From assembly GCA_937915675.1 (NCBI GenBank), contig CALGID010000001.1, forward strand, positions 23,504 to 87,503: a stretch of 64,000 nt of DNA, in the 5' to 3' direction. This DNA is from an uncultured Anaerolineaceae bacterium (GTDB lineage Bacteria > Chloroflexota > Anaerolineae > Anaerolineales > Anaerolineaceae). A program made the position numbers and the translations under genes. The notes beneath the pieces are model-generated. The model saw only the letters and a program-made list of their open reading frames with translations. It was not told where the DNA came from and did not search any database. Positions 40,251 to 57,257 of this stretch are shown here, piece by piece (positions within the stretch are counted from its first letter, which is position 1; each line of letters starts with the position of its first letter).

Positions 40251-40276
40251 CCCCAAAATCCGGAAAGCGAGTTCTG

Positions 40277-40813: not shown

Positions 40814-41673
40814 TGCTCAAAACCCTCGGCCTTGGCGATAACGTGGTGGATGAGTACCTGGATCAAGGCCGGCTATACCCCGGTGGGAATGCCCTCAATT
40901 TTGCCGTCTTCGCCGCCGAGTTGGGCTGCCAATCGGCATACATGGGCGTCTTCGGGGACGACCTCGCCGGCCAGCATGTCCGCCGGGCCGCCGCAGCCAA
41001 AGGCCTGGATATCAGCCAGTGCCGGGTTGAAAGGGGCGAGAACGGCCACGCCTACGTGGAGTTGCGGGAAGGCGAACGCCGTTTTCTGCGCAGCAATCGC
41101 GGTGGGGTCTCGCGTGAAAAGCCCCTGCAAATCGATGCCGCCGCTTTGGATTACATCGCGGGTTTTAACCTGGTGTGTACCAGTGTGCACAGCTATATCA
41201 ACCACGCCCTTCCTTTAATTAAAGCAACCGGCGTAAAACTGGCTTACGACCTATCGGAACGCCGCGATGCAGAGCTTCTGGCCGCGGTTTGCCCCCACTT
41301 GGATTTTGCCTTCAGTTCATGCGGCAAACTGAGCCCCTCCGAGACCCTGGATTTCATCCAAACTTTGCACGCCTGCGGCGCCCCAATGGTTTTAGCCACC
41401 CGCGGAGCGGAAGGAGCTCTATTTTCGGACAGCAGGCAGGTTTTTTCGCAAGCGGCAGTAAACTTGGACAGGGTCATTGACACAATGGCCGCCGGGGATG
41501 GCTTTTTGACCGCCTTCCTGGTCAATTTGCTTCAAAACCAGGCGGCATCACCTTGGGATCTAGCCGTGCAGGAAGCGCTGCGGTCTGCGGCGGCGTTCTC
41601 TGCCAAGGTTTGCCAGTGGGAAGGCTCCTGGGGCATGGGCTTGGATCTAAATTCCAATGACGGGACGGTTTGA
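40810..41673 (+). CDS. PfkB-family sugar kinase, fructoselysine 6-kinase (FrlD)-like
   Basis: N-terminus LKTLGLGDNVVDEYLDQGRLYPGGNALNFAVFAAELG resembles FrlD. C-terminal DTMAAGDGF PfkB motif. Followed by an FrlB-like gene. Confidence 0.65.
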   Translation: MMLKTLGLGDNVVDEYLDQGRLYPGGNALNFAVFAAELGCQSAYMGVFGDDLAGQHVRRAAAAKGLDISQCRVERGENGHAYVELREGERRFLRSNRGGVSREKPLQIDAAALDYIAGFNLVCTSVHSYINHALPLIKATGVKLAYDLSERRDAELLAAVCPHLDFAFSSCGKLSPSETLDFIQTLHACGAPMVLATRGAEGALFSDSRQVFSQAAVNLDRVIDTMAAGDGFLTAFLVNLLQNQAASPWDLAVQEALRSAAAFSAKVCQWEGSWGMGLDLNSNDGTV

Positions 41674-42625
41674 AATGGATGCTTCGCGGATCGTAAAAGA
41701 GATTTTGGCAAAAACACCAGGAGGCATTCAGGAGATCAATTACATTGGCTGCGGGGGCTCGCGGGCCTCGGTCTTTGCCGGGCACTACCTCATGAAGCAC
41801 GAGGCTAAAGCCATTGCCAGCAACTGGTTTAATAGCAACGAATTCGTCCACGCTGCTCCGCGTTCGCTGGGCCCGGGGAGCGTTTGCGTCGTCTGCTCGC
41901 TAAAGGCCACCCCCGAGAGCCTTGAAGCGCTCCGCCTGGCAAATGCCCGCGGGGCGGCGACCGTCGCCCTCACCGGCAGCCTGGATACCGGCCTGGCCAA
42001 AGAAGCCCAGTACCCCCTTGTGTATACAACGCGCGCGGATGGCAACCAGGCCCACGCTTTGCGCATCGGCTTTGAGCTCCTGCATCAGCAGGAAGCCTGG
42101 CGGCACTACGCCGAAGCCCAAACTGCCCTGGAAAAAGTGGACCCCCTGATCGCCGGCGCCCTGGAGCGCAGCCTTTCGGCAGCCCGGGAGTTCGGGCTCC
42201 TCTACAAGGACGATCAGCTCTTTCACATCCTGGCCAGCGGCAGCGCCTATAGCGCGGCTTACATCATGGCCTTCTGCCATCTGATGGAAATGCAGTGGAA
42301 GCATGCCGTGCCCATCCATAGCGGAGAATACTTCCATGGGCCCTTTGAAGCGACTGATAAGGACCTGCCAACGATTCTGATCAAATCCACCGGCCGCACC
42401 CGCCCCCTGGACGAGCGGGTGGAGCGTTTTTTAGCCCAATACGCCTCCCGCGTGACCATCATCGATACGGTCGAACTTGGCTTGCCCAGCCTGGGCGAGC
42501 ACGTTGCCGAATACTTTAATTCTGTGCTCATGCTTACCGTCGCCCACCAATACGTCGATGAGCTCAGCAAGCAAACTGGCCATCCCATGCAGCACCGCCG
42601 CTACATGTGGCAGTTTGACTACTAA
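41657..42625 (+). CDS. SIS-domain fructosamine-6-phosphate deglycase (FrlB)-like
   Basis: Two SIS halves. HSGEYFHGPFE and the C-terminal HRRYMWQFDY resemble E. coli FrlB ESGEFRHGPLE and RRYYGGLVEY. The start may instead be ATG 41675. Confidence 0.7.
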   Translation: MTGRFEMDASRIVKEILAKTPGGIQEINYIGCGGSRASVFAGHYLMKHEAKAIASNWFNSNEFVHAAPRSLGPGSVCVVCSLKATPESLEALRLANARGAATVALTGSLDTGLAKEAQYPLVYTTRADGNQAHALRIGFELLHQQEAWRHYAEAQTALEKVDPLIAGALERSLSAAREFGLLYKDDQLFHILASGSAYSAAYIMAFCHLMEMQWKHAVPIHSGEYFHGPFEATDKDLPTILIKSTGRTRPLDERVERFLAQYASRVTIIDTVELGLPSLGEHVAEYFNSVLMLTVAHQYVDELSKQTGHPMQHRRYMWQFDY

Positions 42626-42912
42626 TCAATATTATTCGAGTTAATTCGGAACAGACCTACTAATCCGGGTCGATTTGATCACTTCGGCCGTTTGGTGTGA
42701 TTTGAAGTAAAGGCTAACCTAATTATTGGTTTCATTGGTAATTCGTTGTTAAGTCCCCGAACTTTTTGGCAATAATGATGCCCTTAAGTCCTCCCGATGG
42801 TTTCTGAATCTCCTTTACCCAAGGAATATTCTTTCTATTAACCAAACCTGAAAAAACAAGATTGATAGTTTCATGATTTGTAAAGGTTGTATCGCTAAAT
42901 GAAACTAACTCG

Positions 42913-42940
42913 TTGACTAAAGGACCTAGGTGCCTATAAT
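42913..42940 (+). promoter_or_regulatory. Near-consensus sigma-70 promoter upstream of the IclR gene
   Basis: TTGACT (42913..42918), 16-nt spacer, TATAAT (42935..42940), about 100 nt before ATG 43041. Confidence 0.45.
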
Positions 42941-43040
42941 CATTGATATTGTTAATTAATTAACGCATTATTCACTAAAATTTAATTTTTAAATAGCCGA
43001 GTTAAATCTGTTAGTTCGAAATGAGGGAACTAATCCAGTT

Positions 43041-43802
43041 ATGAGTTCTACACTTACCAAGTCATTTAAGGTTCTTGAGTATGTAGCCGACATCCACAAT
43101 TTGGAGGCCTTGGCAAAAGCAACTGGGTTGACCAAATCTACCACCTATCGTATCGTCAATTCCCTTGCCCGCCTGGGGTATGTTGAACATGTGCCCAGGG
43201 AAGGATATTATCTGGGGCGGAAGCTGCTTTCCCTTGGCTTTAAGGCGTACTCACAATTACATTTGCCTTCTATTGCCCACCCCTATTTAGTAAAACTCGC
43301 GAATCTTACCCAGGAAACGGTTCATCTCGGTATTTTGGACGAGGATGATATCGTCTACATTGATAAAGTGGATGGAAATCGTGGCCTTCAAATGCGTTCA
43401 CGGATTGGAGCGCGTGTTCTGCCGCAATCCACCTCACTCGGAAAGATCCTGATTGCAGCTAAGGACGACACTGTTTGGTCAAGTTACTTCGATCCCAATT
43501 TGCGCCGAACCTCAAATACGATTGATAAGTTAGAGGATTTTCTAAACGAATTAAAAAAGGTTCGGTCAACCGGATATTCTCTTGATCTGGAGGAGAACGA
43601 GACTGGCATTTATTGTATTGGGGCAGAAGTAAAGGATGCGAGCAACCAAACGGTTGCGGCCCTCAGTCTGTCTGTTGCTAAGGTTTACCTAACGGACAAG
43701 AGATTCAACGAGTTGATCCCATTGGTCGTAGATTATGGTAAGCAGATCTCGTTTGAGTTGGGTTGGAAATCCGAGGGGTTATCCCAGGGAGAAGTGAGAT
43801 GA
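43041..43802 (+). CDS. IclR-family transcriptional regulator
   Basis: N-terminal wHTH (LAKATGLTKSTTYRIVNSLARLGYV) plus a C-terminal IclR effector domain; 253 aa. Confidence 0.88.
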   Translation: MSSTLTKSFKVLEYVADIHNLEALAKATGLTKSTTYRIVNSLARLGYVEHVPREGYYLGRKLLSLGFKAYSQLHLPSIAHPYLVKLANLTQETVHLGILDEDDIVYIDKVDGNRGLQMRSRIGARVLPQSTSLGKILIAAKDDTVWSSYFDPNLRRTSNTIDKLEDFLNELKKVRSTGYSLDLEENETGIYCIGAEVKDASNQTVAALSLSVAKVYLTDKRFNELIPLVVDYGKQISFELGWKSEGLSQGEVR

Positions 43803-43889
43803 GTGTTTCACCAACCTCGGTATTATATTTCAGCGAACATTTTTGTCAGCAAACAAATTTGACATGTTTTTTAGGTAATAGGAATTATT

Positions 43890-45341
43890 ATGCGTAGACA
43901 CTCTGACAACTATGAAGATACACTGGCAAACGTAAATACCTTTTCTTCACCATCCGACTTAAAAATAACCGATATGCGCTTCGTGAACCTGGAAGGCTGT
44001 CCCTTCCCAGCCGTAATCATGAAACTGTACACCAATCAAGGTATTGTCGGTTTTGGAGAAGTCCGAGATATGGGGTCCAAGACATACGCTTTGATGCTGA
44101 AAGGAAGGCTCCTCGGCGAAAACCCATGTAATGTGGACAAACTATTCCGGAGGATCAAACAATTTGGTTCCCACGGACGCCAGGGAGGCGGTGTATCCGC
44201 TATAGAAATTGCACTTTGGGACCTGGCTGGAAAAGCTTTTGGAGTGCCAGTTTACCAGATGCTGGGCGGCAAGTTTAGAGACTCGGTAAGGATTTACTGT
44301 GACACAGATGTAATGTTCGCTAGTGAAAGAAGCGCAGGCAAAGCCATGGGAGAAGCCCTTGCCCAGAGGCTGGAAAAAGGCTTCACCATGTTGAAAATGG
44401 ATCTGGGAATCAACCTTTTAGAGGGGCTCCCGGGGATGCTGAATGCTCCCCTCGGATATTTGGAAAGCCAAAGGGCTGCGTTTGATAAGGGCAATAAACT
44501 CTACCCCTCAGACCTCGCGCATGACCAGCAGGAACTAAGGAAGGCTATTCGAACTACCTCTTCTCTTGAGGATTTGATGGAGAGATTCGATGCTCGCAAT
44601 CGGTCCTATGAATTCCTGGCTCGTATACACCCCTTTACGGCGATCCAAATCACCGAAAAAGGCTTGGATTACTTAGAAAACTACGTCGCTGAAGTCAGAG
44701 ATGTGATTGGATATGAAGTTCCCCTTGCGCTTGATCACTTTGGGAAAATCGCAATCGAAGAAATCATCAAGCTTGCAAAGCGGCTAGAAAAATTTAATAT
44801 AGCATGGCTTGAGGACCCAATTCCTTGGCCACTTACAAATCAATGGAAACGCCTGGCTGACGCTACCACTATCCCCGTTTGTACTGGAGAAGAACTTTAT
44901 TTGGCCCAGAGTTTTGAACCAATTCTCGATGTTGGCGGCTTAAGTTATGTGCATCCGGACATGTTAACCCTGGGCGGCATTTACGAAACAAAGAAGTTGG
45001 GTGATTTGGCAGAACGCTACGGGGCCAAAATGGTTCTCCACCAAGCGGGCACCCCAATTCACGCTCTAGCCGCCGCCCATGCTGGAATTGCAACTGAAAA
45101 TTGTCTGGCAAGTGAATGGCACGCAAACGATGTGCCTTGGTGGGATGATCTCTATGTAGGAAAAATGGCGAAACCCCTGGTGAGATCCGGTTTTCTCGAA
45201 GTATCCAACGAGCCGGGTCTGGGGATTGAAGACCTAAACGATGAACTGATAAAAGAGAGAGTAAGCGCTTCGATCCCAGGAATGTGGGAACCAACGGATG
45301 AATGGAATTTTGAATACAGTTATGACGAAAGGTTAAATTGA
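43890..45341 (+). CDS. Enolase-superfamily enzyme (mandelate racemase/muconate lactonizing family), unusually long at 483 aa
   Basis: N-terminal capping domain with GFGEV and AIEIALWDLAGKAFGVPVYQMLGG. Barrel-domain metal-ligand contexts ALDHFG and WLEDP. Has a ~70-aa insertion relative to typical members. Confidence 0.75.
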   Translation: MRRHSDNYEDTLANVNTFSSPSDLKITDMRFVNLEGCPFPAVIMKLYTNQGIVGFGEVRDMGSKTYALMLKGRLLGENPCNVDKLFRRIKQFGSHGRQGGGVSAIEIALWDLAGKAFGVPVYQMLGGKFRDSVRIYCDTDVMFASERSAGKAMGEALAQRLEKGFTMLKMDLGINLLEGLPGMLNAPLGYLESQRAAFDKGNKLYPSDLAHDQQELRKAIRTTSSLEDLMERFDARNRSYEFLARIHPFTAIQITEKGLDYLENYVAEVRDVIGYEVPLALDHFGKIAIEEIIKLAKRLEKFNIAWLEDPIPWPLTNQWKRLADATTIPVCTGEELYLAQSFEPILDVGGLSYVHPDMLTLGGIYETKKLGDLAERYGAKMVLHQAGTPIHALAAAHAGIATENCLASEWHANDVPWWDDLYVGKMAKPLVRSGFLEVSNEPGLGIEDLNDELIKERVSASIPGMWEPTDEWNFEYSYDERLN

Positions 45342-45352
45342 TAGGTAAAACA

Positions 45353-46192
45353 ATGATCTTTGATTGCCACACACATTTGGCTCACCCCGATCACGTCGGT
45401 GGAGACTTTCTGGCAGATGCCAAGAGGGCCTGGGGGGAGAGTTATTCCATGCCCTGCAGCCCCGTAGAGCACCAAGAGGCTATGAAACAATGCGATGGCG
45501 CAATCGTTTTGGCCCTGGACGCCGAAGACGTCGGCTTCTATGTGCCTAATGAATATGTAGCTACCTATGTGAGCACAAACCCGGATTCCCTTGTTGGATT
45601 CGCAAGTGTAAATCCAAAAAGGTCCGATGCAATAGAACGGCTTGTTTATGCTAAAGAAGAGCTCGGTCTAAAGGGCCTCAAACTCGCCCCAATCTACCAG
45701 ATTTTCGACCCTGTATCGCCCGAGTATTTCCCCCTTTATGCAAAAGCAGAGGAACTAGAAATGCCGGTCATGTGGCATCAAGGCACGTCGTACATCAGGG
45801 TTGGGCCTCTAGATCTTAGCAATCCCGTTTTGATCGATGTAGTGGCACGCCATTTTCCAAAACTGAAGATGGTCATTGCTCATCTCGGCCACCCATGGAC
45901 CTCTGAAACTGCTTGTGTGATTCGAAAGCACCCAAATGTGTTTTCAGATGTTTCCGCACTCGTTACAAGGCCCTGGCAGTTTTACACCGCCATGCTGAGC
46001 ATGGTGGAATATGGTGTAACCAACAAACTATTGTTTGGAACAGATTTTCCGTTCTTTGATTGTGATCGCACCATCAAAGCATTCAGGAATATCAACCACA
46101 TCATTGAGGGTACTAACATGCCTCGCATTCCAGAGGAGGTGATCGAATCGATTATTCATGGAAACCCTCTGGAAAAACTAGGCTTAAATTAG
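45353..46192 (+). CDS. Amidohydrolase_2-family metal-dependent hydrolase/decarboxylase/hydratase (LigI/LigJ/ACMSD-like)
   Basis: MIFDCHTHL N-terminal HxH motif, HLGHPW, and a C-terminal FGTDFP. The start could also be TTG 45338. Confidence 0.75.
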   Translation: MIFDCHTHLAHPDHVGGDFLADAKRAWGESYSMPCSPVEHQEAMKQCDGAIVLALDAEDVGFYVPNEYVATYVSTNPDSLVGFASVNPKRSDAIERLVYAKEELGLKGLKLAPIYQIFDPVSPEYFPLYAKAEELEMPVMWHQGTSYIRVGPLDLSNPVLIDVVARHFPKLKMVIAHLGHPWTSETACVIRKHPNVFSDVSALVTRPWQFYTAMLSMVEYGVTNKLLFGTDFPFFDCDRTIKAFRNINHIIEGTNMPRIPEEVIESIIHGNPLEKLGLN

Positions 46193-46208
46193 AAAAAATC
46201 GGAGGAGA

Positions 46209-46871
46209 ATGAAAGTGACGGATAAAGAACTTTTTGAGTTAATGGAAAAACGGTTGTATACAGGGCTGCTTTGTGATGTCATGGACGAAATGGGCCTTAG
46301 AAACCAGGCGATGAACATCAACATCCGCCCATTAGAAGAAACCTCAGTAATGGCTGGCAGAGCCAAAACCATCCTTGCGGTCGATGTTTACGAAGTAGTC
46401 GATGAACCTTATAAAGTAGAAATCGCGGCCCTGGACAGCATAAAAGAAGACGAAATTCCCGTGATTTGCACCAATTCAAGTTCTAACAACGGAATTTGGG
46501 GTGAACTTCTTTCTACTGCGACAAGAATGCGTGGAGGTAGAGGTGCGGTAGTTGATGGCCTCATGAGGGACACAAAAAAAATCAGGGAGATGGGATTTCC
46601 AGTGTTCTCAGCAGGCTATAAACCTCTCGACTCTAAGGGTCGGGGGTTAGTCATTGATTTTGATTGCCCAGTCGTTGCGGGGGGAATACGCGTACTCCCA
46701 GGTGATGTTATTTTTGCGGATTTTGATGGTGTAGTAGTGGTGCCTAAAGACATTATCCATGAGGTCGTAAAAAAAGCTCTGGATAAGCTCGAGATGGAAA
46801 ATCATTCTCGCAATGAACTATTGGAAGGAAAACTATTGCAGGATGTTTATGACAAGTACGGAGTTTTATAA
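46209..46871 (+). CDS. RraA-family protein (HMG/CHA-aldolase / oxaloacetate decarboxylase-like)
   Basis: WGELLSTATRMRGGRGAVVDGLMRDTKKIREMGFPVFSAG is the RraA-fold signature. The start may be GTG 46215. Confidence 0.8.
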   Translation: MKVTDKELFELMEKRLYTGLLCDVMDEMGLRNQAMNINIRPLEETSVMAGRAKTILAVDVYEVVDEPYKVEIAALDSIKEDEIPVICTNSSSNNGIWGELLSTATRMRGGRGAVVDGLMRDTKKIREMGFPVFSAGYKPLDSKGRGLVIDFDCPVVAGGIRVLPGDVIFADFDGVVVVPKDIIHEVVKKALDKLEMENHSRNELLEGKLLQDVYDKYGVL

Positions 46872-46910
46872 AATCGCAATTCAAGACCACAAAAGAAACA
46901 AGGAGAAAAA

Positions 46911-48128
46911 ATGAAGCAGTTGAACAAGGTAGTAACCATTATAGTAAGTGTAATGCTAGCTATCGCAATCGTGGGGTGTAGCACAGCCGCGCCTGCACCC
47001 GCCGAGCCGCCCAAGCCAGCAGGAGACTCACAAGCTCCAAGCACCTCCGGCCCAACCTTCGATGGGGAAATCTATGTAGGCGTCACTGCCGGTATCACTG
47101 GTGATGCCCCATTAGAAGGCGAAGCTATGACTCGTGCCGTCACCCTTGCGTCCGAAATCATTAATGGTCAGGGCGGTGTCTTAGGGAAAAAATTAGTTCC
47201 GGTTATCGAGGATGATTCATACACACCAGAAGGTGCAATCACTGTCGCCAACAAGTTCATAGCCGACGAAAAAATTGTCGCAATGGCCGGCCCCGGCAGG
47301 TCCAGCTCCTTCATGGCAATCTCAGATCTGATCAAAGAAGCTGGCATGCCGATCGTAACACCAGCTACCAGCACAACTTTCTATAAACTCGACAACCCTT
47401 ACTGGTTCCGAGATAGAACTACTGATGGCGTGAATACCAATATCGCCACCCGGTTCCTTGTTGAAGAACTTGGGCTCAAGAACATTGGCGTTATGCTAAC
47501 GAATGATGACGCCGGTTTGGCTGCCCGGGCAGTGATCGAAAGCACCTTGAAGGAGTTAGGTGTAACCTATCAGATCATCGTCTACAACGGTGGGGAGATC
47601 GACTACAGTGGTCAGGTCTTACAGCTTCGCGATGCCGGCGCAGATGGCCTGGTGTTGTGGGGACATACCGTTGACTACGCTGTGATTTGCAGGAACATGT
47701 ATCAGCTGGGCTATGATATTCCGACAGTTGGAAATACCGGCTTTATGAGTGCAACTTTCCTTGATCTGGTCGATGATGAAGTAGCTGACGGCCTTTATGT
47801 AGTTACAGACATCAACCTTGAGAGCGAAGATCCTTACGTTAAGTATTTCCTCGATGAATATTCCAAACGCTACCCGGATATAAAGCCTGACGTCATTGAT
47901 GCGATCCACTTTGCCCACATGTTCCTGATCGCCGATGCGATTAAACGGGCTGGTGTGGCAGAGAGGCAAGCAATCGCTGATGCGTTGCATGAAACTAAAG
48001 ATATTCCAAGCGTACTTGGCCCCCTGACGTGTGACAAAAACCAGGACTGTGCCCACACTGCAACGGTTTTCCAGAACGAAGGAAAAGTTGCCCATGCAAT
48101 CAAAGCTATTACATTGGATGTTGAATAA
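46911..48128 (+). CDS. Periplasmic-binding lipoprotein of a Liv-type (branched-chain amino acid family) ABC transporter
   Basis: Signal plus lipobox AIAIVGCSTA. Type-I PBP layout. AAGGAG Shine-Dalgarno. Followed by LivH/M/G/F homologs. Confidence 0.85.
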   Translation: MKQLNKVVTIIVSVMLAIAIVGCSTAAPAPAEPPKPAGDSQAPSTSGPTFDGEIYVGVTAGITGDAPLEGEAMTRAVTLASEIINGQGGVLGKKLVPVIEDDSYTPEGAITVANKFIADEKIVAMAGPGRSSSFMAISDLIKEAGMPIVTPATSTTFYKLDNPYWFRDRTTDGVNTNIATRFLVEELGLKNIGVMLTNDDAGLAARAVIESTLKELGVTYQIIVYNGGEIDYSGQVLQLRDAGADGLVLWGHTVDYAVICRNMYQLGYDIPTVGNTGFMSATFLDLVDDEVADGLYVVTDINLESEDPYVKYFLDEYSKRYPDIKPDVIDAIHFAHMFLIADAIKRAGVAERQAIADALHETKDIPSVLGPLTCDKNQDCAHTATVFQNEGKVAHAIKAITLDVE

Positions 48129-48167
48129 TTCAAGACCTAACCAGTAGTTAGCAGCATAAATTTCAGA

Positions 48168-48199
48168 TCCATGTCCAGTCTCCAGAGACTGGACATGGA
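48168..48199 (+). other. Perfect intercistronic stem-loop between the binding-protein and permease genes
   Basis: TCCATGTCCAGTCTC-CA-GAGACTGGACATGGA: 15-nt arms that are perfectly complementary. Confidence 0.8.
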
Positions 48200-48233
48200 C
48201 CCAGGACAGAAGCATGTCCGGAGGCACAATAAC

Positions 48234-49109
48234 TTGGAAACTCTAATTCAATTAGCCATCAGCGGTCTCGCAATGGGTCTCATCTATTGCCTGGTTGCCA
48301 TCGAATTTACTTTAATTCTCAACACGAGCGGATTGATGAACTTTGGCCATGACAAATACATCATGTTCGGAGCATTTTTATTTGGTGGCACATTCGTGAT
48401 TCGTCTCGGTTGGGATTTTCTTCCATCAGCTGTTGCGTCTGTATTACTTATGGGCGTCGTGGGGATATTCATTGCAGTAATTGTTTTCTCACCCCTCCAA
48501 AAGCTCCCCCGGGTTTACGCGATGACAGGAACGATGGCTCTTTCAATGATCCTTCAGGAAGCTACTCGGTTAACTTATGGGGCAAGGTCATTTACCGTGC
48601 TGGGTTTTTTGAGTGGCACAATTAATTTTGGTTTTGTTTCTATTCAACGAGTCTATCTTTTCATCATTATTGTTACGACGATCTTGCTCATCTTCCAGAA
48701 TTTATTGATGATGAAAACAAAACTAGGACGTTCATTCAGAGCCGTAGCTCAAGATAAAGAAACAAGCAGCCTGATGGGGATTAATGTCAATACGATGCTG
48801 ATCGCCTCCGCGACTATGAGTTTGCTGATCTGTGGAATCATCGGTGTTCTGATCATTCCGGTCACTGGTATCACACTGGGTATGAGCAACATGATTGGAT
48901 CCAAAGGTTACATTGCCGGTGTTGTGGGTGGTATGGGTAGCCTCAATGGTGCAATTATCGGCGGATTGGTAGTAGGACTAACGGAAGCTCTTTTTCTCGC
49001 ATTTGGCGGGAACCCGGTCTATAAAGATGTCGTTTCCTTTGTGCTTGTTGTTCTTTTCCTGCTTTTGAAACCTGACGGTATTTTGAGCGAGAAGAAAGCG
49101 GCGATTTAA
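48234..49109 (+). CDS. LivH-type ABC permease
   Basis: Polytopic protein. Probable TTG start at 48234, 9 nt after GGAGG. The ORF-track start at 48171 lies inside the hairpin. Confidence 0.85.
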   Translation: METLIQLAISGLAMGLIYCLVAIEFTLILNTSGLMNFGHDKYIMFGAFLFGGTFVIRLGWDFLPSAVASVLLMGVVGIFIAVIVFSPLQKLPRVYAMTGTMALSMILQEATRLTYGARSFTVLGFLSGTINFGFVSIQRVYLFIIIVTTILLIFQNLLMMKTKLGRSFRAVAQDKETSSLMGINVNTMLIASATMSLLICGIIGVLIIPVTGITLGMSNMIGSKGYIAGVVGGMGSLNGAIIGGLVVGLTEALFLAFGGNPVYKDVVSFVLVVLFLLLKPDGILSEKKAAI

Positions 49110-49130
49110 GATGGGAAGGAACACTGATTC

Positions 49131-50129
49131 ATGAAAGAAAACATCCTCCAGTTCATGTCAGCCCGATGGAAGGCACTGCTCGGATTAGGCTTTTTAATCC
49201 TTTTGCCTCTGTTCATAGATAGCTCCTACCATCAAATAATATTGAATAAGATCATTATCCACTCCATCGTAGTATTAGGCCTCAACTTTATTACCGGATT
49301 GGTAGGACAACTCAACACTGGTACCGCGGGGATGTATGCCTTGGGTGCGTATACATCAGCATTATTGACTACACGGCTCGGGGTATCTCCCTGGATAGGT
49401 TTGATCGCCTCCGTTTTTATGGGGATCCTTATAGGCTACTTACTGGGATACCCAAGTTTACGCGTCTCAGGTGTCTATCTCGTTCTAACAACCTTATCCT
49501 TTGCTGAAGTAGTGAGAATGCTCTTAACCAATATGATTCCGATTACCGGTGGAGCTTTAGGCATCACCAGTATTCCCGAGTTCACTATTTTTGGCGTGAA
49601 GCTCGGTAGAAGCTCGGTAGGTTTCTATTTTATGCTTGCAGCGATCTTAGTGCTCTTTATACTGATCAGCAATCGTTTGATCAATTCGAAGTGGGGCAGG
49701 GCATTCAAAGCTGTACGCGACAACCCCGAATCAGCGGAAACAGCCGGAATTCAAATCTCGACTATCAAGATTGGTGCATTCACACTTGCTTCAGTGTTCG
49801 GTTGCGTAGCTGGCGCATTATATGGAACTCTCATGGGTTTCATCTCCCCAGTTGAATTCACTACCTTAATGTCTGTTCGGTTTATCATGATGTTAATGGT
49901 TGGAGGAATTGGTACTATTGGAGGGAGTATTGCCGGTGCCACGCTTGTAACTCTTTTGCCAGAACTATTGCGGTTCATGGGCGAAAGTTATTGGTTATTC
50001 TTTTCCCTGATTGTCTTGTTAAGTGCAATCTTTGCACCTAACGGCTTGTATTCCTTGTATACCTTTTTCAGGAATCAGGCAAATAAGTACATTTCAAAGT
50101 TAGGTGGAAAAGCTAGTGGAAGCATCTAA
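49131..50129 (+). CDS. LivM-type ABC permease
   Basis: 332-aa polytopic protein with a typical LivM region (GQLNTGTAGMYALGAYTSALL). Confidence 0.85.
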   Translation: MKENILQFMSARWKALLGLGFLILLPLFIDSSYHQIILNKIIIHSIVVLGLNFITGLVGQLNTGTAGMYALGAYTSALLTTRLGVSPWIGLIASVFMGILIGYLLGYPSLRVSGVYLVLTTLSFAEVVRMLLTNMIPITGGALGITSIPEFTIFGVKLGRSSVGFYFMLAAILVLFILISNRLINSKWGRAFKAVRDNPESAETAGIQISTIKIGAFTLASVFGCVAGALYGTLMGFISPVEFTTLMSVRFIMMLMVGGIGTIGGSIAGATLVTLLPELLRFMGESYWLFFSLIVLLSAIFAPNGLYSLYTFFRNQANKYISKLGGKASGSI

Positions 50130-50901
50130 AGATCTTTTAGTCATTCAAAATCTAACAAAGAGGTTTGGCGGGCTGACAGCTGTTCGCGACCTATCGATGA
50201 CGCTGACTCGCTCTGGGATTCATGCGCTTATCGGACCAAATGGTTCCGGCAAAACAACTACAGTGAACCTGATTACAGGCATGTTACCTGCCGATGAAGG
50301 CAGCATTATTTTTGATGAACATGAAATTCGCGGCAGAAAACCTTACTTAATTGCTCGTGCCGGAATCCGGCGGACATACCAGAACATAAAGCTGTTTTCA
50401 TCATTGACGATCAAAGAGAATATGATGGTCGGTGGCCACAGCTTGACCACCGCGGGCATGGTCCGAACGATTTTTGATTACAAGACACATAACGCTGAGG
50501 AGAGGATGTTGTCCGAGAAAGCCGACCAGATCCTTGAAACGGTTGGGTTGACTGGTGTTGCTAATCGCATTTCTGGGTCTCAGCCCTATGGCATCCAAAA
50601 AGTTAGTGAACTTGGCATTGCGCTGATGACTGACCCCAAGTTGATCTTGTTGGACGAACCAGCAGCAGGCCTAAACCCCTCAGAACGTTCTGCATTTATT
50701 GACAAAGTGCTCCATATTAAAGATCGCGGCATTAAGATTTTGCTCATCGAGCACAATATGGACGTTGTAATGAACCTGAGTGAGATCATTACGGTGCTGA
50801 GTTTTGGATCAAAAATCGCTGAAGGTACGCCTTCAGAAATACAGAATAATGACGATGTGATCAAAGCCTATCTCGGCAAGAAATATAAAAAGATCGGCTA
50901 A
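50104..50901 (+). CDS. LivG-type ABC ATP-binding protein
   Basis: Walker A GPNGSGKTT, Walker B LILLDEPAAGLN. The start is uncertain (GTG 50104 or GTG 50116). Confidence 0.9.
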   Translation: MEKLVEASKDLLVIQNLTKRFGGLTAVRDLSMTLTRSGIHALIGPNGSGKTTTVNLITGMLPADEGSIIFDEHEIRGRKPYLIARAGIRRTYQNIKLFSSLTIKENMMVGGHSLTTAGMVRTIFDYKTHNAEERMLSEKADQILETVGLTGVANRISGSQPYGIQKVSELGIALMTDPKLILLDEPAAGLNPSERSAFIDKVLHIKDRGIKILLIEHNMDVVMNLSEIITVLSFGSKIAEGTPSEIQNNDDVIKAYLGKKYKKIG

Positions 50902-50911
50902 GGAGTAAACC

Positions 50912-51625
50912 TTGTTAGAAATCGACAATATCCAGGTTTCCTATGGTGAAATCGAAGTGCTGCATGGCATTTCTATGTCCGTGAACGAGAGTGATCGTGT
51001 TGCAGTGATCGGGGCAAATGGTGCCGGAAAATCTACCTTAATGAAAACCATTATGGGCTTGCTTACACCTAAAGCGGGCAAAATACTCTTCAAAGGCGAA
51101 GCGATTCAGGGTCTGAAACCGCACCGTATCGTACCCAAAGGAATAGTGCTCGTTCCAGAAGGAAGAAAGATATTTCCCAAGTTGACGGTCAGAGAAAACT
51201 TGGAGATGGGCGCCTATACCCAAAATTACACGAAGCCTGAATTTAACTTGCGCCTGGAGCAATGCTACGACATTTTTCCTCGCCTCAAAGAGCGTGCTAA
51301 CCAACATGGGGGCACACTCAGTGGGGGCGAACAACAAATGTTGGCCATTTCCAGAGCCATCATGGGAGACCCCAAATTGTTGATGCTCGATGAACCATCC
51401 CTTGGGCTTGCGCCCGTAATCATGGATGAAGTATTTGAAGAGATCATGCGCATCAGCAATGAACTAAAGGTGCCCATTCTATTAGTTGAACAAAACGCTT
51501 ATAGTTCCCTTGAAATTTGTACTAAGGCTTACGTTCTGGAATTAGGGAAAATCTATAAGGAAGGCACAGGTGACGAACTCCTCAACGATCCTGCAATAAT
51601 CAATGCATACCTAGGAGGAAGTTAG
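50912..51625 (+). CDS. LivF-type ABC ATP-binding protein
   Basis: Walker A GANGAGKST, signature LSGGEQQMLAISRAI, Walker B LLMLDEPSLGLAP. TTG start 6 nt after AAGGAG. Confidence 0.9.
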   Translation: MLEIDNIQVSYGEIEVLHGISMSVNESDRVAVIGANGAGKSTLMKTIMGLLTPKAGKILFKGEAIQGLKPHRIVPKGIVLVPEGRKIFPKLTVRENLEMGAYTQNYTKPEFNLRLEQCYDIFPRLKERANQHGGTLSGGEQQMLAISRAIMGDPKLLMLDEPSLGLAPVIMDEVFEEIMRISNELKVPILLVEQNAYSSLEICTKAYVLELGKIYKEGTGDELLNDPAIINAYLGGS

Positions 51626-51632
51626 TTATATT

Positions 51633-52622
51633 ATGAATACAAAAGGCCATTTAACACCGAAAGTGTTTGTGTCTTTAGTTAATAGTTATTATGATACCAA
51701 TCCTGATTTTGTAAAAGATATTGAAAGGCTTGGATGTACTGTCAGCCTCCGGCTTGAAAATGAAGCTATTACTCAAGAAGCTCTCTTAGAGCAATGCAGA
51801 GATAGCGATGTTTTCGTAGCAAACGCTAAACCTGTAACAAAAGAAATGATGGAGACTTCCCCCAACCTAAAGCTTATTGCGGTGTTTGGGGCTGGCTACA
51901 ACCAAATCGATATTAAATACGCGAAGGAGCGCGGAATAACTGTGACCACTGCCCGGGGGGGCAGTGCAATAGCAGTAGCAGAATTGGCGTTTTCCCTTAT
52001 GCTGGCCCTAGCAAGAAAAACTGTGTTGGATGACTCAATGATGCGTAAGGACAAGTGGTTGAGTCCCATAGGTGTTGAGCTCTATCAAAAAACTTTGGGG
52101 GTCATCGGGTTGGGAGTCATCGGTAAGGAAGTTCTCCGTATCGGTAAAAATGGCTTTTCCATGGACGTTCTTGTTTTTGATCCTTTTCTTGATCCAACAG
52201 ATATCACAGAGTTAGGAGGCAGCCAGGTAGACCTGGACTATTTACTTGCCGAGTCTGATTTTGTAAGTGTACACGTGCCCCTCTCGGAAAAGACGAAACA
52301 CTTAATCAGCACTGAACAGCTGAATAAAATGAAAAGTTCAGCATTTTTAGTAGACCTATCTCGCGGTGGCATAATCGATGAAGCAGCCCTTATAAAAGCT
52401 CTTCGGGAGAACAAGGTTGCTGGCGCCGGGCTTGATGTGCACTCGAGCGAGCCAGTCTCTACTGAAAGCCCCAGCCCTTACAAGGATTTATCAAATGTGA
52501 TCCTCACTTCGCATGCTGGCGCTGGGTCCGAGGAAGCGGTTAGAAGAATTGGCCGGATAATCCTGGAGAACATTGAAGACACCTTAGAGGGTATGTCTCC
52601 CCGCCATAACGTCATTGTTTAA
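51633..52622 (+). CDS. D-isomer-specific 2-hydroxyacid dehydrogenase family protein
   Basis: NAD-binding GVIGLGVIGKEV. Catalytic region LSRGGIIDEAAL...AGLDV...SHAG. Confidence 0.85.
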   Translation: MNTKGHLTPKVFVSLVNSYYDTNPDFVKDIERLGCTVSLRLENEAITQEALLEQCRDSDVFVANAKPVTKEMMETSPNLKLIAVFGAGYNQIDIKYAKERGITVTTARGGSAIAVAELAFSLMLALARKTVLDDSMMRKDKWLSPIGVELYQKTLGVIGLGVIGKEVLRIGKNGFSMDVLVFDPFLDPTDITELGGSQVDLDYLLAESDFVSVHVPLSEKTKHLISTEQLNKMKSSAFLVDLSRGGIIDEAALIKALRENKVAGAGLDVHSSEPVSTESPSPYKDLSNVILTSHAGAGSEEAVRRIGRIILENIEDTLEGMSPRHNVIV

Positions 52623-52651
52623 AAATAATCACTAACGAGCAGGAGAAAACT

Positions 52652-54268
52652 ATGATTACTGACTTTGACATTCTTATCCGTAATGGCAAGGTGGTTGATG
52701 GCACTGGATGCCCTTGGTATAGATCGGATATCGGCATTAAAGGCGACCGAATCGTGGCAATGGGCAGCTTAAAGGATACAAAGTCGAAACTCATCATCGA
52801 TGCGTCATCGAAATTCGTAACACCCGGATTTATCGAATCTCATAGTCATAGCGATGCAACAATCGCAGAAAACCCATTCGCATACAGTAGTTTGCGCCAA
52901 GGCGTCACAACCGAGGTTGTTGGTCTATGCGGTGCCTCCTCAATTCCAATGAACGAAACTGGTAAAAAGTTTGGTGCTGGAGGATTCGGGAATTTCAAAA
53001 ATATCAAGACTTTATTCGGGTCAACCGGCGAAATATTTGAAAAACTTGAAGAAAATGGAATTTCCGAGAATGTTGTTTGGTTTGTAGGGCATAACACACT
53101 GCGGAAGCTGGTTGGTGCTTTAGGGGAAGAATGTACAACTGACCAATTAGCAGAGATGAAACAGATTCTGCGTACATCTCTAGAAGCTGGCGCGGTTGGC
53201 CTTTCCACCGGCTTGGAGTTCTTTCCGGGATCTCTCGCTCCTACATCTGAAATCTCCGAACTTCTGAATGTGGTTGCAGAATTTGATGGTGTTTATGCCA
53301 GCCACACCCGCAATCGCGATGAGCACATCCTTGAAGCTTCGGATGAATTCATACAACTCATCAGAAAGCACAATCTGAGGGGTATGTTCTCACACCTCAA
53401 CGTTCGCTATAACACCGGTGCCCCAGATGGTGCCTGGGAAACCGTGATCGGCATGATCGAAACGGCAAGAAAAGACGGTTTTACGATCCAGACCGATATG
53501 GGTTACATCGAAAAAGGAATAGGGAATGTTGCGGCTATCCTCCCGCAATGGGTACGCAAAGGGGGATGGAGGGAGACCCAAAACCGGCTGCGAGACCCTG
53601 ATGTTCGCAAAAAACTGAGAACTGATTGTGATCGATACTGGAGGTTCATACATCGGGGAGAATGGGACCGCCTGGCCATTCAAAGTAATCCGGCTCATCC
53701 GGAGATAAATGGGTTGTCTTTACCTGAAATAGCAAAACTTTGGAAAAAAGATGAATGGGATTGTTTATTCGATATTTTTGCCGATGCTGGGGAGAGCCTC
53801 GATAGTGTAGTTGGCCTTGGTAAAACCTTCACGGAAGAGCACATCATCGAGACTTTAACCCACCCACTTTATTCATACATCATTGATGGGTACACAACTA
53901 ATGTTGGTACTGTTCTTGCCGAACAAACCAGGTTTCCCCTACACTATTCGGGAATGGTAAGGTTGTTTACTGTATTAGTCAGAGAAAAAGGGGTGTTCAC
54001 CCTGGAAGAAGCGGTTAGAAAGGTAACCACGATGCCGGCTGGCTTTTATCACATATTTGATCGAGGACTATTACGGCCTGGGTGTTTTGCAGATATTAAT
54101 ATATTCGACTTAAACAACCTGAAAGAAAACGCAACTTACCAGGAACCTGCGCAATACTCAGAGGGTTTTGACTACGTGATAGTGAACGGGACTCCGGTGA
54201 TTGTAGAAGACAAACATACACTGGCAACGCCTGGTAAAAATATTCGATTTAATGTACCCGTGGAATAA
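52652..54268 (+). CDS. D-aminoacylase (N-acyl-D-amino-acid deacylase) family amidohydrolase
   Basis: DILIRNGKVVDGTG...DIGIKGDRIVAMG...TPGFIESHSHSD N-terminal pattern, a C-terminal beta-sandwich, 538 aa. Confidence 0.8.
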   Translation: MITDFDILIRNGKVVDGTGCPWYRSDIGIKGDRIVAMGSLKDTKSKLIIDASSKFVTPGFIESHSHSDATIAENPFAYSSLRQGVTTEVVGLCGASSIPMNETGKKFGAGGFGNFKNIKTLFGSTGEIFEKLEENGISENVVWFVGHNTLRKLVGALGEECTTDQLAEMKQILRTSLEAGAVGLSTGLEFFPGSLAPTSEISELLNVVAEFDGVYASHTRNRDEHILEASDEFIQLIRKHNLRGMFSHLNVRYNTGAPDGAWETVIGMIETARKDGFTIQTDMGYIEKGIGNVAAILPQWVRKGGWRETQNRLRDPDVRKKLRTDCDRYWRFIHRGEWDRLAIQSNPAHPEINGLSLPEIAKLWKKDEWDCLFDIFADAGESLDSVVGLGKTFTEEHIIETLTHPLYSYIIDGYTTNVGTVLAEQTRFPLHYSGMVRLFTVLVREKGVFTLEEAVRKVTTMPAGFYHIFDRGLLRPGCFADINIFDLNNLKENATYQEPAQYSEGFDYVIVNGTPVIVEDKHTLATPGKNIRFNVPVE

Positions 54269-54283
54269 ACAGAAAAGGTTCTC

Positions 54284-55426
54284 ATGAAAATTCAGAGCAT
54301 TGATACGATTATTCTCGAAAGTCCTTATGAATATGGCGTAAAAGCAGCAGAGCAAGAATCGACTGGACCGAAATATAGCTGTCTTGTGCGCATCAGAACT
54401 GACGAGGGCATCGAGGGCGTTGGCGATGTCGATTCTCACCCCCACGTCATCAAAGCGATGATAGACGCGCCAACAGCAACACCTGGGCTGATCGACGGGC
54501 TTCGAAATGTATTGATTGGTATGAATCCTTTGGAAACCGATCTTATCTGGAACAAATTGTATGAAGCCGGCTATTACTATGGTAGAAGGGGAGGCCACTT
54601 ACAGGCCATTAGCGGAATCGATATCGCACTCTGGGACATTAAAGGCAAGGTTTTAAATCAAAGCGTATCTGTCCTGCTCGGCGGAAGGTTTCATGAAAAA
54701 ATGAAGGCCTATGCTTCAACGCTTTTCCGGGATACTCCAGATAACATGAAGGCAGCCGTCAATAAATATCGGACCCTTGGATTCAAGGCCATCAAATTCG
54801 GGTGGGGCAGCTTTACTCAGAACCCCCGTTATGGGATTAGCCTGGTCGAAGCAGCCCGGAAAGAAGCTGGCGACGAAATCGATATCATGGTGGACGGATA
54901 TATCACAAATAACGACATCGTATTCGCCACAGAAATTGTCAACCGGCTAGCTGAGTTTGGGGTTTATTGGATGGAGGAACCTCTACCCTCAGACAACCTT
55001 ATAGGTTTCAGAAAGCTTTCAGAGAACGCAAAGGTGAGAATTGCCACAGGAGAGCAACTCGGCGGCACCTTTGAATACGCCGATCTTATTGAGAAAGGGA
55101 ATCCTGATATCGTGCAGTTCGATATATCCCGATGTGGAGGACTCACCGAAGCTAAAAAAATTGTTGAGATGGCTCGCATGCATTCCAAGTTGATCTGCCC
55201 TCACGCATGGACCTCAGACATTCTAACAGCAGCTTCATTGCACCTTAATTCCAACACGCCAGATGCAATATTCCAGGAATTCTGCACGAATGATACCCCT
55301 ACCAGCCGGGATATCGCCTTGAATCCCATAGAGCTTACACCGGATGGGTACATTAACGTTCCAACACTTCCTGGGCTTGGCATCAGTCTCAATGAGGAAA
55401 TAATTGAACGTTACAAGGTTGTGTAA
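54284..55426 (+). CDS. Enolase-superfamily enzyme, mandelate-racemase-subgroup-like (acid-sugar dehydratase or racemase)
   Basis: ISGIDIALWDIKGKVLNQSVSVLLGG; metal-ligand contexts MVDGY, WMEEP, VQFDISRCGG; a His context CPHAW. Confidence 0.78.
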   Translation: MKIQSIDTIILESPYEYGVKAAEQESTGPKYSCLVRIRTDEGIEGVGDVDSHPHVIKAMIDAPTATPGLIDGLRNVLIGMNPLETDLIWNKLYEAGYYYGRRGGHLQAISGIDIALWDIKGKVLNQSVSVLLGGRFHEKMKAYASTLFRDTPDNMKAAVNKYRTLGFKAIKFGWGSFTQNPRYGISLVEAARKEAGDEIDIMVDGYITNNDIVFATEIVNRLAEFGVYWMEEPLPSDNLIGFRKLSENAKVRIATGEQLGGTFEYADLIEKGNPDIVQFDISRCGGLTEAKKIVEMARMHSKLICPHAWTSDILTAASLHLNSNTPDAIFQEFCTNDTPTSRDIALNPIELTPDGYINVPTLPGLGISLNEEIIERYKVV

Positions 55427-55479
55427 GCATATCAGGCCGCATTAATGTATCAACCAGCCCCTTAATAGAACAACTGGAA

Positions 55480-55511
55480 CTGGACAGGTTAGCGCCTGTC
55501 CAGTTTTCTTT
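55480..55511 (+). terminator. Rho-independent terminator closing the low-GC gene cluster
   Basis: CTGGACAGG-TTAGCG-CCTGTCCAG followed by TTTTCTTT. Confidence 0.85.
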
Positions 55512-55638
55512 GCACTTTTTGATTGATTTCTTAACTCGTTCGGTTTATTACTGCGACCATATTTAACGTGTTATCGGCAAGGGGCCTGCTGGCGGGTTGA
55601 TATGCTTCAACTCGCCGCAGCCAGAACCGATGAAGGCC

Positions 55639-57068
55639 TTACCTCCTGATCAGCGGCATGTAAGCCGGATAAAACTGCCTGGCCACCATCACCGCCTGCA
55701 ACTTATCCACTGCGCTGTTATCCAGCCGGTTATACGCCACGGCAATGCGTCCATCCGGGTAGGTGGCAATACTGCTGTAGGTACCCTTGAGGATGTCATG
55801 GGTGGCATCCTTCCAACCATAATCCACCTCCGCGCAGAACCAGGTGCGGTTGCCCGCGAAGAGCGGCCCGCAGTTTTCCCTGCCTACCGCCAGCGCCGGC
55901 CGCATCATCATCAGGCTGTTATTCGTAACGCCTCCCCCCCAAACCGAATAAGTTTGAAAAGTAATGACCTCGTAGTTGTTTTTGTCCACCACCAGGTCGA
56001 TGGTGTTGTAAATACTGTTACTGTTTACACCATCACTAAGCTCCTCACAGGTAAACGCCGAGTTCCCCACGCAGTTACCCCCCGGTCCTGAATACCAGAT
56101 ATGGCGCAGTTTATTATTGGCCAAACCAGCAGTTGTATATATCACCGAAAAGCGATCCTTCGCGTTCTGGCGCGCGTGCACGGCCAGGCTGCTGGTATCG
56201 TTGCTGATCACTTCCAAAGTGGTGCATCCCCAAGCCGAATCCGAGGCACAAGGGGTGGCCGTGCCGATGGGATGCTGCGCCGCGCGGATGCTGGGGTGGT
56301 CCGAATCGTTGTATACAATCTGGGTACACCCTCATACGAAATCTCCATATCCATGTTGGTACCAAAATTTGTATCATTTCCGTAAGCAACGGCGTGATAT
56401 TCAAAGGACTGATCCGGGCCTAACCACCCTTTTCCCGGGCCGAGATAAGGCAAGGCAATGACCGTCCGGCGGCCATCGTCCAAAACCCAATGGAAAGCAA
56501 TCGTAGGGTAACCGCTCGTGGGGTCGTACTTGAGCACCACCCGGGCCTCCCCGATGGTGATATTTTTGGTGGTTTGCGATTTCAGCACCGTAATGATATT
56601 CCATGCCGGGTAAGGGTCTAAGATGGCGATATCTTTCCAGGCATATTTAATGGCATTATTGGTGATATCCACATAGGCGATGCCAATGCGCGTGTAACTC
56701 AGCAAGGGGAGGGTGCTGTTGAACACCCGCACAATATCCATCGAGGCCTGGTAGCCCACATTGCCCAGGTAATCCACCGTGCTGCACTGGAAGTTGTGGT
56801 TATTGCCGCAGTTGCCGGCACCGGGTTCCACCTCGTAGGCCAGCTTGAGGTCCGCATTGTTGGTATCGTGATAGGCTACGTAAAGGCGGGCAGTATAAGG
56901 GTCATACTTGGCGGTCACATCGCGGGTAAAAAAGAGCTGGGGTGTCGAATCAACAACAACCTTTTCCCAGGGCAGCGGCGGGCCTGCCGGCGCGGCGGCA
57001 TAGGCAGGAAGGCTTCCGAAGCCCAATGCCAGGATGAGGATGGCAATCAGCAGTATCTTGCGGTTCAT
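55639..57068 (-). pseudogene. Secreted Cys-rich repeat protein, paralog B, split by a frameshift near 56320..56335
   Basis: ORFs 56208..57098 and 55639..56217 overlap in different frames. My translation shows the downstream frame is open from 56331 (GCTQIVYNDSDHPSIRAAQHPIGTATPCASDSAWGCTTLEVISND...) and is homologous to paralog A. Signal peptide MNRKILLIAILILALGFGSLPAYA follows AAGGAG (start 57068). Confidence 0.65.
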
Positions 57069-57257
57069 TCTTGCTCCTTTGATCTCAAGATCACTCATTT
57101 AGTGTCTGAATCACATGGTCTGTCAGTCATCTTTCATTAAGGTCACGCACATCTGCCCCGCCGTCTGGCCCGGGATTTACTAGCAGGCGGCGTGTACCTG
57201 CCTCACTCTAGCGGAGGGCAGCCGGGGCAGCAGCAGCTGCCCTCCACGCAAAAAGCG

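Follow-up and report, generated by a model that had tools for sequence, protein, structure and literature searches.

A low-GC operon without mobility genes, probably catabolic and probably acquired horizontally, at a variable site of an uncultured Anaerolineaceae genome

Gene Content of the Block

The stretch of DNA analysed here (the window, 64,000 nucleotides) belongs to an uncultured Anaerolineaceae bacterium and corresponds to positions 23,504–87,503 of contig CALGID010000001.1 in assembly GCA_937915675.1. The host assembly is a metagenome-assembled genome (MAG) of 61 contigs and 2.48 Mb, 95.7% complete. The subject of this work is a block of about 13 kb with a low G+C content (GC), located at 42630–55560 of the window and lying within one 110-kb contig. 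A first-pass annotation, made from the letters alone, had described 12 co-oriented and tightly spaced genes between an AT-rich leader and a strong terminator, and had proposed a catabolic island of horizontal origin. The 12 genes are indeed in one orientation, on the forward strand, and are separated by 7–87 bp or overlap.

The left edge of the block is occupied by the leader (42626–43040, 415 bp, forward strand, GC 0.345), close to the 400 bp estimated in the annotation. The near-consensus promoter noticed there was also found, as a TTGACT-16-TATAAT motif at 42913–42940 with a match of 11/12, but promoter-like sites were no more common in the region than in shuffled sequences (18 found versus 20 expected). 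No riboswitch or other RNA element was detected in the leader with Rfam. The first gene (43041–43802; Pfam HTH_IclR and IclR_C) codes for an IclR-family, KdgR/PcaR-like regulator, the probable repressor of the operon. Its best NCBIfam match is KdgR (4e-49), under the model cut-off. It is followed by a 483-aa enolase-superfamily enzyme of the acid-sugar dehydratase type (43890–45341; MR_MLE_N/C), which possesses an extra segment of approximately 70 aa, by an Amidohydrolase_2 protein with a sugar lactonase/decarboxylase fold (45338–46192; PF04909, 2e-33), the start of which is placed at 45353 by gene callers, and by an RraA-fold, class II aldolase/decarboxylase-like protein (46209–46871; Pfam RraA-like). 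The next five genes (46911–51625) constitute a Liv/HAAT-type ABC importer. They encode a binding protein (46911–48128; Peripla_BP_6), whose PDB matches are branched-chain amino-acid binding proteins, two permeases (48171–49109 and 49131–50129; BPD_transp_2) and two ATPases (50104–50901 and 50912–51625; ABC_tran). The last three genes correspond to a D-isomer-specific 2-hydroxyacid dehydrogenase, glyoxylate/hydroxypyruvate reductase-like (51633–52622; Pfam 2-Hacid_dh(_C) and NCBIfam), a 538-aa amidohydrolase with the D-aminoacylase fold, of the N-acyl-D-amino acid or amino-sugar-acid deacylase type (52652–54268; Amidohydro_3), and a 380-aa enolase-superfamily enzyme of the acid-sugar dehydratase/cycloisomerase type (54284–55426; MR_MLE). 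An intrinsic-terminator-like element (55480–55511, forward strand) marks the right end of the block: a hairpin at 55480–55503, with a T-run after it, has a folding energy of −23 kcal/mol (z = −6.1), in agreement with the predicted strong terminator. This hairpin was not among the terminators listed by a simple terminator scan.

The annotation had reported no integrase, transposase, tRNA or convincing flanking repeat, and dedicated searches gave the same picture. No mobility domain (integrase, transposase) was found by Pfam in any of the 12 proteins and no tRNA within the 64-kb window. In the search for flanking repeats or a target-site duplication, the longest word shared by the block boundaries was 9 bp, a chance match. 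The nearest recombinase is a Xer-like gene approximately 9 kb upstream, conserved across the genus. The block thus lacks the classical hallmark of an island, the association of a tRNA site, an integrase or transposase, and flanking direct repeats.

Composition and Boundaries

The GC of the block is 0.455, versus 0.564 for the whole genome, 0.578 for the neighbouring segment 30000–42625 and 0.565 for 55561–64000. With a standard deviation of 0.025 among 12.9-kb genome windows, this corresponds to a z value of about −4.4. In windows of 1 kb, the GC was 0.54–0.62 up to 42 kb, 0.43–0.50 from 43 to 55 kb, and 0.50–0.61 beyond. The GC at third codon positions (GC3) ranged from 0.42 to 0.52 in the 12 block genes versus 0.58–0.74 in eight adjacent genes. 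The raw tetranucleotide distance between the block and the genome reached z = 5.9, and only six of 935 windows, all on contig C4, were equally deviant. After normalisation for GC, the tetranucleotide signature of the block correlated with that of the genome at r = 0.81 (versus 0.955 ± 0.022), with three of the 935 windows being lower. Both edges were sharp when followed in 100-bp steps. On the left, the GC fell from 0.54 to 0.43 and then 0.38 over 42500–42800, with the drop between 42600 and 42700; on the right, it rose from 0.44 to 0.57 at 55599/55600. The block therefore extends from about 42626 to 55600, both edges being resolved to within approximately 100 bp. The sharply bounded AT-rich block and the distinct codon usage described by the annotation were consequently recovered by all three measures, GC, GC3 and tetranucleotides.

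Other parts of the genome are also deviant. Only one region of the assembly has a lower GC than the block, at approximately 68–81 kb on contig C4; the surrounding segment C4:66000–84000 (GC 0.43–0.46) is the most deviant of the genome by raw tetranucleotide distance. Segment C19:12000–26000 shows a GC of 0.42–0.49. The beginning of contig C42 (1–15000) has a near-normal GC, yet displays the lowest normalised signature correlation of the genome (0.79–0.82). The signature correlations between the block and the other low-GC regions (0.69–0.87) are not decisive as to a common origin.

As the genome is a 61-contig MAG, a low-GC stretch might result from mis-assembly or binning, foreign DNA having been joined to an Anaerolineaceae contig. 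Other assemblies were searched for proteins identical to the first or last one of the block or to the adjacent SIS protein. Both junctions, which lie here inside a single 110-kb contig, and the full gene order were repeated in at least six independent assemblies from different samples and assemblers; both junctions were present in JGI 3300029822, ERZ724025, ERZ27283067, SRR27955147, SRR27955144, GCA_003504695.1 and GCA_002407905.1. The shared left junction joins the SIS gene to the IclR gene, and on the right the 380-aa enolase gene is followed by two secreted-protein paralogues, an AraC regulator and a lyase gene. Because these junctions recur, a chimeric contig is excluded, and the probability that we grant to an artefact is negligible. 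In the MAG GCA_003504695.1 (locus L022, DNZM01000138.1, 1568–3202), the gene of the 483-aa enolase was called as two pieces of 187 and 254 aa with a gap of 300 bp, which may reflect a genuine break in that strain or else faulty assembly.

The Variable Site in the Genus

The genus was explored by DNA searches against 30 other species and by a protein search in 24 genomes, and the site was fetched in ten relatives. The block was absent from all 30 species, and no homologue of the 483-aa enolase was found in the 24 genomes. The window DNA matching genus relatives consisted of backbone only, at 30.5–31.5, 32.4–33.3, 34.1–35.8 and 38.2–39.5 kb, and then from 60.05–61.55 kb onward. The two conserved genes delimiting the site are a UDP-glucose 6-dehydrogenase gene (UDPG-DH, 38174–39529, reverse strand) on the left and a gene of the beta-eliminating lyase family (60039–61421, reverse strand) on the right. 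The distance between them is only 84–85 bp in four relatives (G005, G006, G009 and G017), 194 bp in G011 and 353 bp in G023. Other DNA is present in three genomes, with sizes of 1.1 kb (G044), 2.3 kb (G043) and 8.1 kb (G018). The G018 insert (L013 = G018:C2:88000-102000, 3372–10735) is an 8-kb F-type ATP synthase operon with a cyclic-di-AMP-receptor-like gene. None of the accessory genes of the window was found at this site in the ten relatives. The UDPG-DH/lyase junction is therefore a recurrent variable site in the genus. Since the relatives share only the backbone, and since the two flanking genes may be as close as 84–85 bp, the whole segment 39530–60038 (20.5 kb) is species-specific. The comparison of synteny thus agrees with the proposed island, the block being missing from sites that are empty in relatives. 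As for its extent, the compositional block stands as described by the annotation, but the species-specific stretch is larger and layered.

On both sides of the block are accessory genes that form an older layer. The left part (39530–42625, forward strand) encodes a DUF2089 protein, two small membrane proteins, a fructoselysine-kinase-like PfkB protein and a FrlB-like SIS protein. In the right part (55600–60038), two secreted-protein paralogues stand in tandem, both disrupted in this strain, together with an AraC regulator. Within the 20.5-kb stretch, the low-GC block represents a younger layer. It could be proposed instead that the entire stretch arrived as a single island, of which the low-GC part is merely the core. 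Such a scenario would account for the absence of the full stretch between the two backbone genes of genus relatives and for the lack of close genus orthologues of the SIS protein and of the secreted paralogues. However, the outer parts are host-like in GC, GC3 and tetranucleotide signature (r = 0.94 with the genome versus 0.81 for the block), they diverge between strains like the backbone when the core diverges four-fold less (see below), and the family of the secreted paralogues has further copies in the same genome and in the genus. We consider a single arrival improbable.

An inheritance of the block from the ancestor of the genus, with loss by every other species and a composition shaped by selection rather than by foreign origin, would be in keeping with the absence of mobility genes, of a tRNA and of repeats, the only observation in its favour. 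It would require many independent and precise losses leaving gaps of 84–85 bp, and would leave unexplained the GC-normalised tetranucleotide deviation, the affiliation of the 483-aa enolase with Clostridia, the fact that no close homologue occurs in 400 class genomes and the reduced divergence between strains. Ancestral presence followed by loss is accordingly very hard to sustain, and insertion of the block into an accessory region remains the preferred reading.

The secreted paralogues (55639–58685) are each split in this strain, into 190 + 286 and 274 + 197 aa. The same splits exist in independent JGI and ENA assemblies of this strain type, and both genes are intact in a divergent conspecific strain (L119:14007–17054; 476 and 475 aa). 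These lesions are consequently true pseudogenisations, specific to the strain, rather than errors of sequencing.

Divergence between Conspecific Strains

The window was compared with a divergent conspecific contig (NODE_1295 of ERZ724025, loci L020 and L119). The flanks differed at 2.25% of positions versus 0.55% for the block once a hyper-divergent patch is left aside, an approximately four-fold reduction (Fisher p = 1.4e-19). The switch coincided with both compositional edges. On the left, the final flank difference was at 42583 and the next one at 43157; on the right, the final block difference was at 55090 and the first flank difference at 55732, with 1–4% divergence from there. The leader was 99.5–100% identical between strains, and the adjacent SIS gene differed at 5–6% of third positions. 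More generally, third-position differences amounted to 0.05–0.08 in the backbone and host-GC flank (UDPG-DH, DUF2089, the two small membrane genes, PfkB and SIS) and to 0.000–0.029 in the block genes for IclR, Amidohydro_2, RraA, both permeases, both ATPases, the 2-hydroxyacid dehydrogenase and Amidohydro_3. Two block genes were exceptions, the 483-aa enolase (0.017–0.048) and the binding protein (0.224). The same pattern was seen in two more assemblies (L021 and L022), which have a different enolase segment.

Inside the block the divergence was a mosaic, with approximately 2% over 43900–45700, 0–0.3% over 48400–53200 and 12% in the patch. This patch (47345–48401, 1.06 kb, forward strand) spans the last two-thirds (3' side) of the binding-protein gene and runs into the beginning of the first permease gene. 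The divergence reached 11.7% over 47200–48399 and was mostly synonymous, the differences at codon positions 1, 2 and 3 of the patch being 14, 3 and 91. It looks like an allelic replacement, with a more distantly related copy of this operon as the source. What is exchanged between strains is the same unit as that defined by composition, and recombination has made its interior a mosaic. The lower divergence of the block relative to its surroundings implies a more recent common ancestor between strains, and it would appear that the strain backbones had already diverged when the block entered or was last homogenised. We suggest that it moves between strains by homologous recombination in the flanks and not by mobility genes of its own.

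The inner empty site, in which the SIS gene would be joined directly to a secreted paralogue, was never seen, and all the conspecific contigs found carry the block. As no block-free strain was found, the insertion was not caught in the population. This situation would also be expected if the block had already been present in the species ancestor, its low divergence being due to a later recombination sweep by gene conversion, or to mosaic assembly, and not to a late arrival. The mosaic inside the block fits such repeated recombination among pre-existing copies. Against this, the low-divergence tract stops at both compositional edges, as expected if the block itself is the exchanged unit, and the unameliorated GC3 argues for a short residence in a genome of 56% GC. 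An old block with a later sweep is the most serious of the alternatives, although we regard it as rather unlikely compared with a recent entry.

Outside the block, two local peaks of strain divergence were visible. The hairpin-repeat array at 37000–38200, between a BNR-like gene and UDPG-DH, is the most strain-variable part of the backbone (11–25% per 300 bp, partly unalignable). The intergenic segment upstream of PfkB (40600–40899) differed at 9% of positions versus 2–4% around it.

Origin of the Block

The named matches of the conserved flanking UDPG-DH were all from Anaerolineaceae/Chloroflexi, with 71–79% identity. The 483-aa enolase behaved differently. Its best matches (75–79%) were metagenome proteins bearing no taxon name, followed by proteins of Clostridiales MAGs (64–67%), with 68% for a protein of the Eubacteriales MAG GCA_031551255, and by proteins of Paenibacillus, Cohnella and Alicyclobacillus (57–60%). 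Among 400 genomes (216 genera) of the host class, the best identity was 56–61%, and there was none in the host family or order. Trees were made for two of the 12 block proteins. In the 113-row tree of the 483-aa enolase, the protein was placed in a clade of 31 rows (SH-aLRT 99) where every named member is from Clostridia, and the five Chloroflexota rows were all in the other clade, of 82 rows. The 538-aa amidohydrolase grouped with a protein of contig L035 and two unnamed proteins (supports 100 and 99). Best-hit taxonomy therefore separates the flank from the block for this enolase, as foreseen if the island is foreign.

The only operon-level relative found is contig L035 (11.6 kb, GC 0.44), which carries 11 of the 12 block genes, nine of them in the same order, with 51–78% amino-acid identity. 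It was ruled out as the donor, being too distant. A donor scan of named genomes returned only relatives at 52–59%, all devoid of the operon, and a scan of JGI metagenomes with the tight amidohydrolase clade gave nothing above 48% among the matches listed. The contigs with the closest enolase homologues (L032, L034 and L035) contain no taxonomic markers. The best reading is that the source was a lower-GC lineage, probably of Bacillota type, as suggested mainly by one gene.

Predicted Enzymes and Pathway

For the 483-aa enolase, the best PDB and NCBIfam matches are galactonate/mannonate-dehydratase-like. The 380-aa enolase matched PDB 3sjn (7e-80) and also the galactarolactone-cycloisomerase-like 4ggb; with NCBIfam, it scored 2e-58 for galactonate dehydratase versus 7e-11 for the racemase DgcA. 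Taken together, both proteins favour acid-sugar dehydratase models (2e-58 and 2e-48) over DgcA (7e-11) and Ala-Glu epimerase (2e-9). A role of the 380-aa protein as N-acylamino-acid racemase was rejected on these scores. The invariant acidic and His residues are found in the expected order (D282, E308, E334, D357 and H384), and the nearest structures, 2qq6 and 3sjn, have no known activity. The only PDB match of the Amidohydrolase_2 protein is the uncharacterised BB4693, and it has no characterised close relative. The RraA-fold protein aligns with the HMG/CHA aldolase 3noj over residues 30–215, with the Arg-Asp pair kept. The 538-aa amidohydrolase matches about equally the D-aminoacylase 1m7j, the N-acyl-D-Glu deacylase 3gip and PpOngB (9kb1). 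Its residues H64, H66, C93, H218 and H248 align with the metal ligands of 1m7j (HxH, Cys, His, His), in an alignment that omits the catalytic Asp, and are invariant in alignment A2.

A module formed by a large enolase, an RraA-fold protein, a small enolase and a de-N-acylase recurs in contigs L032, L034 and L035. The L032 locus (4310–11446) contains a Zn-alcohol dehydrogenase, a small enolase, an RraA-like protein, a URO-D-like protein, a PIG-L de-N-acetylase, an Amidohydro_2 protein and a large enolase 76% identical to that of the block. There, the non-homologous PIG-L-family enzyme takes the place of the D-aminoacylase-fold enzyme, which mildly favours an N-acetylated amino-sugar-type substrate.

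We propose the following scheme. The IclR repressor would be released by a pathway metabolite, and the Liv-type ABC system would import an amino-acid-like acid. The D-aminoacylase-fold enzyme would strip an N-acyl group and the Amidohydro_2 enzyme would open a lactone. One or both enolase-superfamily enzymes would then eliminate water (or ammonia), yielding a 2-keto-3-deoxy acid that the RraA-fold enzyme would cleave or decarboxylate. The 2-hydroxyacid dehydrogenase, the only dehydrogenase among the 12 genes, may handle the C2/C3 product. Judging from the families of the regulator, importer and enzymes, the operon would in all likelihood be a catabolic route for an acid sugar or a related hydroxy/amino acid, as the annotation had supposed. 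The most likely substrate class would be an N-acylated amino(sugar) acid or an acid sugar; the narrower proposal of an N-acyl amino(sugar) acid in particular is tentative.

Overall Reading

Our interpretation is that the block is very probably a self-contained operon with its own regulator, acquired horizontally by this Anaerolineaceae (Chloroflexota) species from a lower-GC lineage and inserted between accessory genes at a site that is variable in the genus. The observations that we count as established are the foreign composition, the absence of the block in the genus with its empty sites, the repeated junctions, the enolase phylogeny and the four-fold lower divergence switching at both edges. 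The overall proposal of an island is thereby strengthened by composition, best-hit taxonomy and synteny alike. Horizontal acquisition itself is upheld by the composition, the enolase phylogeny and the empty sites; the donor lineage could not be named, and a single gene is clearly cross-phylum.

Several points weigh against this reading. The clear cross-phylum signal comes from the 483-aa enolase only, as the amidohydrolase has no named sister and its named matches, at approximately 50%, come from several phyla, among them Chloroflexota. No donor emerged: the closest proteins are unnamed and 70–79% identical, and the tetranucleotide signature of L035 correlates with that of the block at just 0.66. 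A metagenome contig may be a consensus patched together from several co-occurring strains, which could create or exaggerate the divergence step, and no strain devoid of the block was present among the contigs found via the exact SIS protein. Regarding function, which is deduced from family membership only, no NCBIfam model reaches its cut-off for any block enzyme, and no sugar dehydrogenase able to make a lactone is encoded among the 12 genes.

Anaerolineaceae are abundant and mostly uncultured in anaerobic digesters and sediments, and to our knowledge little has been established about the way in which they gain substrates. The present case is the import, probably across phyla, of a regulator, a transporter and enzymes as one complete unit, devoid of any mobility gene, and the strain-level data suggest that this unit is still being exchanged and remodelled. 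Beyond the first-pass annotation, the analysis shows that the variable site is larger and layered, gives a sign that the block has spread recently within the species and is mosaic there, and resolves in part a source that probably lies in another phylum. As a gene transfer detected by composition, it is of an ordinary and well-documented kind, and only a novel substrate would make it of greater interest. The enzyme set recurs in other uncultured bacteria with no characterised member, and it is therefore a reasonable target for substrate discovery.

Comparison with Known Systems

The RraA-fold protein shares its fold and the Arg-Asp pair with the HMG/CHA aldolase of aromatic meta-cleavage (LigK/PcmE; 3noj), but it remains under the LigK cut-offs (116 versus 179 bits and 108 versus 304). 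A place in a protocatechuate/gallate pathway was rejected, on account of these sub-threshold scores and the absence of partner genes. With N-acyl-D-amino-acid utilisation, the block has in common the D-aminoacylase metal site (HxH, Cys, His, His); it differs in having no racemase, OSBS or dipeptide-epimerase-subgroup enolase as a partner, according to NCBIfam scores.

Non-phosphorylative acid-sugar routes proceed through a lactonase, an enolase-superfamily dehydratase and a 2-keto-3-deoxy-acid aldolase or dehydratase/decarboxylase. The block resembles them by its Amidohydro_2 protein, its two MR-subgroup enolase enzymes and its RraA-fold enzyme with the aldolase Arg-Asp pair. Unlike them, it possesses neither a sugar 1-dehydrogenase nor a mutarotase, its importer is of the HAAT (amino-acid) type and not of the sugar type, and a D-aminoacylase-fold enzyme is added. 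An RraA-family enzyme acting on a keto-deoxy acid sugar has been described in the oxidative DEHU pathway (FlDet; PMC8563752).

In the ong pathway of Pseudoalteromonas prydzensis for oxidised chitin (GlcNAc1A), the deacetylase OngB acts first, deamination then leads to 2-keto-3-deoxygluconate (KDG), and KdgK and KdgA follow (PMC9537276, PMC12017989). OngB demonstrates that the D-aminoacylase fold is able to deacetylate an amino-sugar acid (PMC12017989). The block shares with this pathway a D-aminoacylase-fold metallo-amidohydrolase (9kb1/9kb3, 7e-45) in an operon with keto-deoxy-acid enzymes, and an N-acyl amino-sugar acid would suit its amino-acid-type importer. However, the block amidohydrolase resembles true D-aminoacylases no less closely (7e-52 versus 7e-45), the metal ligands being common to both. 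Neither a KDG kinase (PfkB) nor an aldolase of the Eda/KdgA/DHDPS type is encoded among the 12 genes, and the downstream places are filled by the two enolase-superfamily enzymes and the RraA-fold enzyme; the PfkB encoded nearby is part of the older host-GC layer and is fructoselysine-kinase-like. A more speculative and on the whole unlikely extension would make the block a mobility-gene-free catabolic cassette circulating across phyla among anaerobic-digester bacteria. It would spread within species by flank-mediated recombination, swap internal segments such as the binding-protein gene, and encode an undescribed route for an N-acyl amino-sugar acid, where the steps catalysed in the ong pathway by the deaminase, kinase and aldolase would fall to enolase-superfamily enzymes and an RraA-fold lyase.

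Compared with classical metabolic genomic islands, the block differs by having no tRNA target, integrase, transposase or direct repeats, by its position inside an older variable region and by its apparent exchange between strains through flanking homology. It shares with them the deviant GC, GC3 and oligonucleotide signature, the sharp borders, the sporadic distribution with empty sites in relatives, the phylogenetic incongruence of at least one gene, and the self-contained set of regulator, transporter and enzymes.

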